From a virus (taxonomy: Duplodnaviria > Heunggongvirae > Uroviricota > Caudoviricetes), in IMG/VR virus record IMGVR_UViG_2684622619_000018: DNA of 5,317 nt; one strand, written 5' to 3'. The notes beneath the pieces are model-generated. The model saw only the letters and a program-made list of their open reading frames with translations. It made no database searches and had not been told where the DNA came from. This document shows positions 1,314 to 2,588 of the stretch, one piece after another. Position numbers and translations under genes: made by a program. Numbering within the stretch: position 1 is the stretch's first letter; every line of letters begins with the position of its first letter.

Positions 1314-1343
1314 CAGAAAAAACAAAACCCGCCGAAGCGGGTT
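1314..1343 (-). terminator. Rho-independent terminator ending the hok transcript
   Basis: On the minus strand: AACCCGC-TTCG-GCGGGTT (7-bp stem, 4-nt loop) followed directly by TTGTTTTTTCTGG. It lies about 70 nt after the hok stop codon. Confidence 0.7.
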
Positions 1344-1411
1344 AAGTGCGGGTGCGTTGAGGATGCCTGACACATCAGCGGTGGCGAGGGATTTCTCCCC
1401 CGCCTGGTCTC

Positions 1412-1567
1412 TTACTCCTCAGGTTCGTAAGCTGTGAAGACAGCGACCTCCGTCTGGCCGGTTCGGANTCGTACCTCGCAGAGGTCTTTCCTCGTTACCA
1501 GTGCCGTCACTATGACGGTTAAACAGATGACGATCAGGGCGATTAACATCGCCTTTTGCTGCTTCAT
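1412..1567 (-). CDS. hokD: Hok/Gef family type I membrane toxin (HokD/RelF-type), 51 aa
   Basis: Minus-strand translation from ATG 1567: MKQQKAMLIALIVICLTVIVTALVTRKDLCEVRxRTGQTEVAVFTAYEPEE (x is the N at 1468). It has a single transmembrane helix and the conserved C-terminal Cys, and matches E. coli HokD as I recall it. AAGGAG Shine-Dalgarno lies 9 nt upstream. The in-frame ATG at 1624 (70-aa ORF in the track) is probably not the start. Confidence 0.85.
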   Translation of the reverse strand: MKQQKAMLIALIVICLTVIVTALVTRKDLCEVRXRTGQTEVAVFTAYEPEE

Positions 1568-1784
1568 AACCTGCTTCTCCTTGCCTTTCGGCGCGTAAGA
1601 GGCTAACCTACGTTTGTGAAGCATAGATTGGGCCTCAGATTAATGTTAAGCGTCTTGCAGGACGCGTAATGTTAACTGGGGCTTTTCTCTGTCTGCCTTA
1701 CGGTGGCATGCCCGAGGCAGACAGCCTCAAGCACCCGCAGCAATTCTACTTAACTCTCGCTTTACAGCAAACCGTTTTGCCCGA

Positions 1785-1800
1785 TATGGGAATTCCCATA
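1785..1800. repeat. Perfect 16-bp palindrome TATGGGAATTCCCATA (contains GAATTC), with a second GAATTC-centred imperfect dyad at 1802-1818
   Basis: Read directly: 1785-1800 equals its own reverse complement. 1802-1818 is GGAA-TGAATTCA-G-TTCC. Both lie just downstream of the smORF stop, in the hok leader. Confidence 0.9.
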
Positions 1801-1810
1801 CGGAATGAAT

Positions 1811-1915
1811 TCAGTTCCCCAGGCGCTCCATCAAAAACACAACCAGGCAGTAAACACCCACAACAGCAATAACAGCCAGAGCGCCTTCCATTACCAGTGA
1901 AATATCATCCGACAT
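1811..1915 (-). CDS. Unannotated small ORF: 34-aa single-pass membrane peptide (MSDDISLVMEGALAVIAVVGVYCLVVFLMERLGN)
   Basis: Not in the ORF track (below its length cut-off). ATG at 1915 is preceded by AAGGGAGGGAAT, a strong Shine-Dalgarno at correct spacing. Codon use is E. coli-like (CTG, GGC, GCT). Residues 10-28 form one hydrophobic helix. TGA stop at 1811-1813. Confidence 0.4.
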   Translation of the reverse strand: MSDDISLVMEGALAVIAVVGVYCLVVFLMERLGN

Positions 1916-1970
1916 ATTCCCTCCCTTGGTGTGAATCCCGGCGAACGTTTTTACCCCCACCGACAAATAA

Positions 1971-2000
1971 CATATACTAGAAAAGCAATAGCTATAGCAA
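1971..2000 (-). promoter_or_regulatory. Candidate sigma-70 promoter for the smORF-hok transcript
   Basis: Minus strand: TTGCTA, 18-nt spacer, TATATG, about 50 nt upstream of the smORF start. It overlaps an 8-bp palindrome ATAGCTAT (1988-1995). The match to consensus is only moderate. Confidence 0.25.
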
Positions 2001-2024
2001 CGCCTGCAAATGCATCTGGCCGGC

Positions 2025-2588
2025 TCATTGGTTCTCCCCCTGTGTCGCTTCTACTGCGATCTGACTGGCGTATTCGTTAATGGTAACGATAAGTTCTTGC
2101 TCGGCCTCATCCAGACAACTACCGATACCTCGCCTGTCCACTTCAGAAGCATCGAAATCTGCACGAAGCCTGGCGACCTTCAGGATTGCGGACAACACCT
2201 CATCAGGGATTGCCGGAGAGTTGGTTGACGTTTCCGAGATTATCCGAAAATTATTGGTTGACGAACCCTTATTTTCCCGAAAGTTTCCAGCCTGAAGCAT
2301 GGCGGCGCGGTGACACCAGATAATCCAGCCAAGCGCCATATCCCATGCCATGTATTCTCTATCGCCATTTTTTGCTCTGCGGCGATCTACAGATTCCCCG
2401 AAACGCTTCTCCATAAATAATTCATAGGCTGCCCGTTCATCCGATACTGATGCCAGTGATGCCAGTGCAATTTTTAATGCGGTAAGCATGTTGTTTTGAT
2501 CTTCATCGAGTCCGAACGGTATTTCATCCCGTGATGACTCAATTCCGGTAATCGTGTTCTGTAGCCATTCTTTGGTTAATTCAGTCAT
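2025..2588 (-). CDS. Hypothetical protein, 187 aa, no recognisable domain (ORFan accessory gene)
   Basis: ORF-track 2025..2588 with ATG start and an in-frame TGA one codon upstream. It is AT-richer than the replication genes and uses rare E. coli codons (AGA, ATA, CTA, TTA, AGG). No convincing Shine-Dalgarno; a GC hairpin (2598-2613) sits 9 nt upstream of the start. Confidence 0.55.
   Translation of the reverse strand: MTELTKEWLQNTITGIESSRDEIPFGLDEDQNNMLTALKIALASLASVSDERAAYELFMEKRFGESVDRRRAKNGDREYMAWDMALGWIIWCHRAAMLQAGNFRENKGSSTNNFRIISETSTNSPAIPDEVLSAILKVARLRADFDASEVDRRGIGSCLDEAEQELIVTINEYASQIAVEATQGENQ

Follow-up and report, generated by a model that had tools for sequence, protein, structure and literature searches.

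Directly upstream of a hok/sok toxin-antitoxin locus in a prophage of Escherichia coli O157:H7 lies a 34-codon reading frame (here ORF2) that could specify a small hydrophobic peptide, and the question raised by this locus is whether the frame is a gene and, if it is, whether its product belongs with the toxin, as a second toxin, a modulator of Hok or a leader peptide, with the lysis functions of the phage, or with neither. The window, i.e., the whole stretch of 5,317 bases that was analysed, is 100% identical to chromosomes of E. coli O157:H7, and in strain Sakai it lies within the lambda-like prophage Sp14. Its genes are all on the minus strand, in the order replication protein P, DUF1627, several hypothetical proteins, a 187-aa gene, ORF2, hok/sok, a rem-like gene, and DUF968; RusA and Q come after DUF968 in the full record. 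The ambiguous bases of the window (50 N at 361-410, within the DUF968 gene, and one N at 1468, in hok codon 34) are masked positions and not biology.

ORF2 runs on the minus strand from an ATG (1915-1913) to a TGA (1813-1811) and encodes MSDDISLVMEGALAVIAVVGVYCLVVFLMERLGN; the other features of the locus are given in Table 1. The distance of 243 nt from its stop to the start of hok at 1567, as given in the earlier note on this DNA, is exact. The description of the frame as unannotated fails, since ORF2 is ECs_2755 (NP_310782.1) of E. coli O157:H7 Sakai and is present in RefSeq as the "hypothetical protein" WP_001278460.1, with WP_001278450.1 as the allele from other prophage contexts.

Table 1. 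Features around ORF2 in the 5,317-base window, listed in the direction of transcription.
Feature	Positions	Strand	Details and basis
ORF1, 25-aa hydrophobic, unannotated, MSRPDAFAGVAIAIAFLVYVICRWG	1951..2028	-	Start codon shares bases with the TGA of the preceding 187-aa gene (ATGA)
Shine-Dalgarno sequence of ORF2, GGGAGGG	1919..1925	-	Sequence; 3 nt to the ATG (4 nt from the GGAGG core)
ORF2, gene of a 34-aa predicted single-pass membrane peptide (stop included)	1811..1915	-	Sequence, annotation, RIBOseq, codon-position pattern and dN/dS, hydropathy
Palindrome CCGTATGGGAATTCCCATATCGG	1781..1803	-	Between the ORF2 stop and the hok -35; no T-run after it
Candidate hok promoter	1743..1770	-	-35 TTGCTG 1770-1765, 16-nt spacer, -10 TAGAAT 1748-1743; +1 at about 1736
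hok mRNA leader / sok antisense region	1562..1736	-	Rfam RF01794, 114.9 bits, E = 1.8e-26, full-length
mok (1624-1412) with hokD (1567-1412) nested in the same frame	1412..1624	-	Sequence, annotation, PF01848
hok mRNA 3' end: fbi CCTCAACGCACCC (1362-1350) and intrinsic terminator (1343-1326)	1326..1362	-	Terminator scan and sequence

The near-consensus Shine-Dalgarno (SD) sequence noticed earlier is present at the spacing listed in Table 1, and the ECs2755 row of a published table contains the values 3 and -6.4, which we read as SD distance and free energy (PMC5597208, S4 Table). In the remaining alleles of the 34-aa type among the fetched loci, AAAGGAGGG occupies the SD position. GGAGG occurs 16 times in the window, and in six cases a start codon that opens an ORF of at least 20 aa comes after the motif, ORF2 being one of the six; of the other five starts, four begin long minus-strand ORFs of the window (three of them annotated in RefSeq) and the fifth is an internal in-frame GTG of one such gene. 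GGAGG-linked starts of this kind, together with conservation in which change is mainly synonymous, place ORF2 beyond what chance gives. The peptide has a single hydrophobic stretch (residues 11-29, mean Kyte-Doolittle value 2.72) between an acidic N-terminus and the C-terminal residues ERLGN, so that the one hydrophobic helix that had been proposed for it is borne out by sequence and hydropathy. With fewer than 50 residues and one helix of predicted membrane-spanning length, ORF2 has the features of a small single-pass membrane protein, and ECs2755 was called an inner membrane protein with one transmembrane segment by a predictor used in an earlier study (PMC5597208). The 34-aa type has a net charge of -3 and a single basic residue in the tail; its charge distribution suggests an N-out/C-in topology, which is uncertain because the diverged short type of the family described below has an N-terminal lysine.

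Published ribosome profiling establishes that ORF2 is translated in vivo. In the RNAseq/RIBOseq study of Sakai by Hücker et al. (2017), ECs2755 belongs to a control group made up of the 250 shortest annotated genes, for which the mean ribosome coverage value (the ratio of footprint RPKM to RNA RPKM) in LB is 1.55 (PMC5597208, S2 Table). For ECs2755 in LB at 37 °C, 132.6 RPKM of RNA and 885.0 RPKM of footprints were recorded (ratio 6.79, coverage 0.95); the values were 167.7 and 116.7 RPKM in BHI (ratio 0.76, coverage 0.99) and 164.6 and 3.8 RPKM under cold and osmotic stress (ratio 0.02, coverage 0.65) (PMC5597208). A paralogous ORF2 copy that is unannotated in Sakai was independently called as the novel gene XECs145 (LB ratio 4.35, coverage 0.99) (PMC5597208); Sakai carries three copies of the ORF2 module, and RIBOseq reads could partly be common to them. 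The neighbouring genes ECs2758 and ECs2760 have only 7-9 RPKM of RNA in the same table (PMC5597208), and thus a promoter close to ORF2 probably drives its transcription in uninduced lysogens, although for the 34-aa type RNA levels alone point to such a promoter. In strain EDL933, mok/hok of the same prophage has 1871 RPKM of RNA and 37 RPKM of footprints (ratio 0.02) (PMC4765031, Additional file 8), as is expected of a sok-repressed toxin. We found no mention of the ORF2 peptide sequences, the WP accessions, or ECs2755 in full-text literature, the data being confined to supplementary tables, and no report of direct detection of the protein by western blot or mass spectrometry. The earlier note had named ribosome profiling as one check on this frame and variation among homologous loci as another; the profiling data are positive, and so, as set out next, is the comparison of loci, such that together they back a genuine gene for a small membrane peptide.

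The comparison covers 85 loci from viral and genome collections, to which others were added from annotated records of phages and E. coli genomes. Within the 34-aa type there are six nucleotide alleles, with eight variable coding sites of which seven are in third codon positions and six are synonymous, and the two replacements (V8A and E30D) are both conservative; the two main 34-aa sequences are found on 984 and at least 1,000 contigs in public collections. A diverged ORF2 of 29-30 aa (MLVLKCALAIAAVMAIYCLAVVLMDRLSD; the short type) occurs in the phages Tritos, mEp460_ev081, and Evi, in Shigella flexneri and E. ruysiae, and in many E. coli, and varies at 11 sites (eight in third positions, seven synonymous). 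When within-type variation is pooled for both types, 15 of the 19 variable sites are in third codon positions. The two types are 60-63% identical in nucleotides and about 50% identical in amino acids, with dN of 0.37 and dS of 1.08 (dN/dS of about 0.35). There is a third type, at locus L101 (MLAALKGFVAILAVVAIYCLVVVLMDRLSD), and in its C-terminal half nearly all differences from the short type are synonymous. A core AxxAV..[IV]YCL within a helix of about 19 residues and a tail [DE]RL[GS][ND] are conserved, and the mean Kyte-Doolittle value lies between 2.4 and 3.0 across all family types. The SD is kept in all types, 4-6 nt ahead of the start. The 34-aa type begins with ATG and most short-type loci begin with GTG, the copy on plasmid pINV having ATG instead. 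Conserved nucleotides around a disrupted frame, which the earlier note had regarded as the mark of an RNA element, were not found: frame-disrupted versions are present in databases only as singletons, and the RNA fold of the ORF2 region is no better than that of shuffled sequence (z = +0.36), with no significant structure at the SD. This pattern of substitution argues strongly for purifying selection on ORF2 at the protein level.

The family is narrow. A scan of one genome per species recovered ORF2 from no genus other than Escherichia and Shigella, apart from three short MAG contigs that had been binned to other taxa. Among 5,426 complete E. coli genomes, the module of ORF1 and ORF2 (34-aa type) is present in 674 (1,468 places) and the short type in 1,982 (2,294 places); many Shiga-toxin-producing strains have several copies of ORF2. 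In every RefSeq record examined, among the matches listed, the short-type match has no annotated feature. Searches of Pfam (hmmscan, E <= 10), PHROGs, NCBIfam, and PADLOC returned nothing meaningful for ORF2, and there was no structure match; a profile of the family run against 1.84 billion representative proteins recovered 22 clusters, all of them family members and none of them Hok. A tblastn search against phages matched only the diverged short type, probably a result of low-complexity masking. ORF2 follows the 187-aa gene, DUF551, ORF6N, an IS, or a divergent gene. It belongs to an Escherichia/Shigella prophage family of 29-34 aa, located in the nin-like region of lambdoid prophages and usually just upstream of the promoter of a hokD-type hok/sok locus.

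ORF2 is placed outside the hok transcription unit. The hok -10 and +1 are conserved across all hok loci aligned, and the +1 (about 1736) is taken from the start of the match to the Rfam hok/sok leader model. The leader begins with the 5' element GGGUGCUUGAGG, the complement of which is the fbi CCTCAACGCACCC at the 3' end of the hok mRNA; weak Rfam matches to isrK (27 bits, gathering score 50) and rsmX at 1322-1403 on the minus strand probably arise because this stretch is that 3' end (fbi and terminator). The ORF2 stop, at 1811, lies 75 nt upstream of the 5' end of the hok mRNA and also upstream of the hok -35, and the terminator scan found no terminator between ORF2 and hok. At short-type loci a mere 10 nt or so separates the ORF2 stop from the hok -35 that follows it, and thus transcripts of short-type ORF2 must run into hok. 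A promoter-like element (TTGAAT, TTGAAG, or TTGAGT, then 17 nt and CATATT) is found about 35-70 nt upstream of the short-type start in L004-L007, L096, L097, and L099; the fact that its hexamers have been kept although the sequence between them has changed supports a dedicated, putative sigma-70 promoter for short-type ORF2.

The interval between ORF2 and the hok -35 in the window is occupied by a near-perfect palindrome, CCG(A)TATGGGAATTCCCATATCGG, which was noted also in L092 around 1215-1240. It is a perfect 24-bp palindrome in the PPompW phages and, within the 34-aa type, a perfect 22-bp palindrome in the other class of alleles. It has stayed beside hok in the PPompW phages, which are without ORF2, and is absent from short-type loci. 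The palindrome may serve to bind a protein, or it may form a hairpin in RNA.

ORF2 is a real gene, and we consider it probable that its product is a lysogen-expressed, 34-residue, single-pass inner-membrane peptide with an accessory function that travels with hok. ORF2 is translated from its own strong SD, is expressed in uninduced lysogens, and forms a cistron of its own that ends before transcription of hok begins, outside the hok/mok/sok control circuit. The peptide is predicted to insert in the inner membrane, where it may act by helix-helix contact with another membrane protein of host or phage, and it would be expected to be non-toxic at its native level of expression. It would then represent an accessory function of the "moron" type, expressed in the lysogen and carried along with hok.

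The suggested mode of action is drawn by analogy. Several small bacterial proteins that cross the inner membrane once, among them AcrZ, MgtS, MgrB, and PmrR, have larger membrane proteins as the targets of their regulation. ORF2 resembles these in its size of less than 50 aa, its one predicted transmembrane helix with short termini, its own SD, its documentation by ribosome profiling, the lack of any domain-family match, and a conserved helix face with small residues. Unlike them, ORF2 is prophage-encoded and confined to Escherichia and Shigella, and it has no sequence relation to them. Binding of a partner protein by ORF2 would thus be a mode of action taken over from these proteins. Phage morons, on the other side of the comparison, are lysogen-expressed accessory genes with their own promoter that are inserted between conserved phage genes. 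ORF2 is like them in being a small cassette in variable gene contexts that is expressed in uninduced culture, with a promoter-like element in the short type, and unlike them in having no terminator of its own, such that it reads into hok, and in that a promoter of the 34-aa type is indicated solely by RNA abundance.

The family could instead be tied to Hok itself. The peptide might antagonize or modulate Hok at the inner membrane, for example by buffering leaky Hok in the lysogenic state or tuning Hok-assisted lysis on induction. This would explain why ORF2 travels with hok: all three diverged ORF2 types directly precede the promoter of hok/sok loci that are themselves nearly identical, an intact hok is downstream in 76 of the 78 34-aa-type loci with enough sequence in the fetched sample, and synteny this tight, shared by at least three types that have diverged, could point to a role connected with hok rather than an independent one. 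The numbers of ORF2 places in the 5,426 genomes given above can be set beside the 7,839 places (3,946 genomes) matched by a 451-nt query that extends from ORF1 across ORF2 into the beginning of the hok leader, most of them through the hok promoter/leader end only. It also fits that ORF2 is highly translated while hok is silent (ratios of 6.79 and 0.02), and that a short CL-V motif is common to both transmembrane helices. Against this, about half of the hokD-type loci are without ORF2. These include hokW/sokW of 933W/Sp5, an experimentally working toxin-antitoxin locus (PMC8621323), as well as the PPompW phages, in which a paa/adfO gene takes the place of ORF2 with the junction inside the last few ORF2 codons. 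Conversely, ORF2 is intact where hok has been replaced (L007, L099), has decayed (pINV, L097), or is disrupted (L013, L063). In addition, Hok is about 98% identical across loci while the ORF2 types share only about half of their residues, which gives no sign of co-evolution, and the similarity between the two proteins is not significant (hhalign of ORF2 against HokD: probability 1.3%, 5 columns). The synteny with hok is therefore strong but non-obligatory, and the earlier proposal of a Hok modulator is weakened. We regard modulation of Hok by ORF2 as unlikely, and its stronger form, in which the whole family is a dedicated membrane partner of Hok (a protein antagonist or co-factor, constitutive in lysogens), as distinctly unlikely.

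The loci in which ORF2 and hok have come apart have some further features. In L013 and L063, both of the 34-aa type, the hok leader is present, but unrelated DNA, perhaps inserted, stands in place of the hok coding sequence from the first codon on; the junction follows closely on the sok match (at about 1846-1848). The intact short-type ORF2 of L099 (E. coli) and that of L007 (S. flexneri) are followed by unrelated DNA from one and the same junction, right after the stop; upstream of ORF2 in L099 are genes for a SIR2-family deacylase and an NTP pyrophosphatase, and this locus may therefore belong to a defence island. The CL.V motif also suggested that ORF2 might be a truncated Hok paralogue, and this was rejected on the basis of the hhalign result and of the exhaustive profile search, in which no Hok was recovered; a protein search with HokD, for its part, returned only near-identical Hok sequences.

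A second type I-like toxin, i.e., a peptide with a toxicity of its own that is usually held in check, as with Hok, TisB, Ibs, or ZorO, is also hard to reconcile with the data, even though ORF2 is small, hydrophobic, and prophage-borne, and adjoins a type I toxin gene. ORF2 is among the better-translated small genes in unstressed LB, as opposed to mok/hok, which is the opposite of what a repressed toxin would show. There is no plus-strand promoter/terminator pair overlapping ORF2 that could provide an antisense RNA and no known (Rfam) sRNA, the match to the Rfam sok model being confined to 1736-1562, downstream of ORF2; nor is the SD occluded by significant structure. The negative net charge with its single basic tail residue likewise argues against a toxin, as does the lack of a toxin match in PADLOC, Pfam, or NCBIfam. 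As regards Hok/Gef proteins in particular (PF01848), ORF2 is similar in being small and hydrophobic, with Cys-Leu in the transmembrane helix, and in its position on the same strand and in the same module in tight synteny. It differs from them in having no detectable homology (hmmscan against Pfam at E <= 10, family profile search, and hhalign), no counterpart of the periplasmic C-terminal domain of Hok, and no mok-like leader, sok-like antisense RNA, or tac/fbi fold-back mRNA. Thus, the suggestion of a second toxin is not supported, in view of the heavy translation in normal growth and of the missing antisense elements and Hok homology; ORF2 is probably not a toxin at its native level, and we judge this explanation improbable. 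The proposed class of lysis or holin modulators also falls away, since ORF2 lies outside the lysis cassette, between the replication gene P and DUF968/RusA/Q and hence upstream of Q, and matches no holin family in PHROGs or Pfam.

The plus strand of the region does have weak promoter-like sites, at chance level (three found, 1.6 expected). One of them (1950-1978, TTTACC-17-TATACT), antisense to ORF1, points in the direction leading away from ORF2.

A regulatory role might reside in the transcription or translation of ORF2 rather than in its product, with hok being controlled through read-through or a 5'-extended hok mRNA. The lack of a terminator as far as hok, and the short-type transcripts that must enter hok, would allow for this. 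However, a pure uORF predicts neither purifying selection on the protein, nor conservative replacements, nor a conserved C-terminal motif, all of which are found in ORF2. The end of ORF2 is 43-75 nt before the hok +1, and ribosomes on ORF2 therefore cannot reach the hok leader structure; hok loci moreover function without ORF2 (PMC8621323). The more specific idea of a leader peptide, through which translation had been proposed to be linked to hok, draws on the position of ORF2 upstream of hok on the same strand, a position that it shares with Mok. Mok, unlike ORF2, overlaps hok within the hok mRNA, while ORF2 is wholly upstream of the hok promoter and start; since ORF2 is outside the hok mRNA and hok already has its own leader ORF in mok, ORF2 cannot be a leader peptide in the sense of mok. 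It is neither inside the regulated mRNA nor coupled to hok in translation, and its protein sequence is also selected. Control of hok by ORF2 as a uORF is accordingly a very unlikely explanation.

The 34-aa-type loci raise another possibility, that a membrane protein of 74 aa with two helices was broken by a homopolymer frameshift into ORF1 and ORF2, the 34-aa ORF being a pseudogene fragment of it. The ORF1 stop directly follows a G5 run (G5 then TAA, 1949-1957, minus strand), and fused proteins of 74 aa do exist (P0005, P0008, and P0009), through a 1-nt change in the G-run or T-run. Each of the fusions is on one or two contigs only, compared with the many contigs of the main 34-aa sequences, and they are therefore probably sporadic mutations or homopolymer sequencing errors. 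The G5 run and the separate ORFs are present in 85 of 85 scorable fetched loci, ORF2 is translated and has its own strong SD, and there is no ORF1 whatever in short-type and L101-type loci. We find a split remnant highly improbable. A programmed -1 frameshift at G5-TAA that would join ORF1 to ORF2 was likewise considered and is unsupported, given that the fusions are rare homopolymer-length variants and that ORF2 has its own SD.

ORF1 is intact in all 85 scorable loci of the 34-aa type, with the ATGA overlap and the SD conserved. Its allele classes differ by an in-frame indel of two codons, and it has non-conservative variants, e.g., Ala to Asp in the helix (37 loci), such that the constraint on ORF1 looks weaker. 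The exact ORF1 sequence was absent from the protein collection searched.

That ORF2 is a chance ORF or an RNA element and not a gene, as its small size and narrow taxonomic range might suggest, is barely credible and already effectively refuted by the ribosome profiling of ECs2755 and XECs145, the third-position bias and low dN/dS, the SD and start codon conserved across types, and the absence of an RNA-fold signal.

Annotation and documented translation of ORF2 were already in the record (PMC5597208); the three diverged types of the family, the widespread and largely unannotated short type, its conserved promoter-like element, and the non-obligatory synteny with hok are new here. ORF2 is thus a common gene, annotated and translated, that is nevertheless uncharacterised, and a large share of E. 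coli carries a copy. The short type constitutes an annotation gap, with 1,982 of 5,426 genomes carrying a sequence for which the RefSeq records examined hold no feature. Well expressed in lysogens and fixed beside hok/sok, ORF2 is a clean experimental target. If it were a partner of Hok, it would add a proteinaceous layer to a type I system that has been regarded as purely RNA-controlled. Our picture of hok/sok regulation would change if ORF2 interacts with Hok; otherwise, ORF2 would be one more accessory membrane peptide of prophages.
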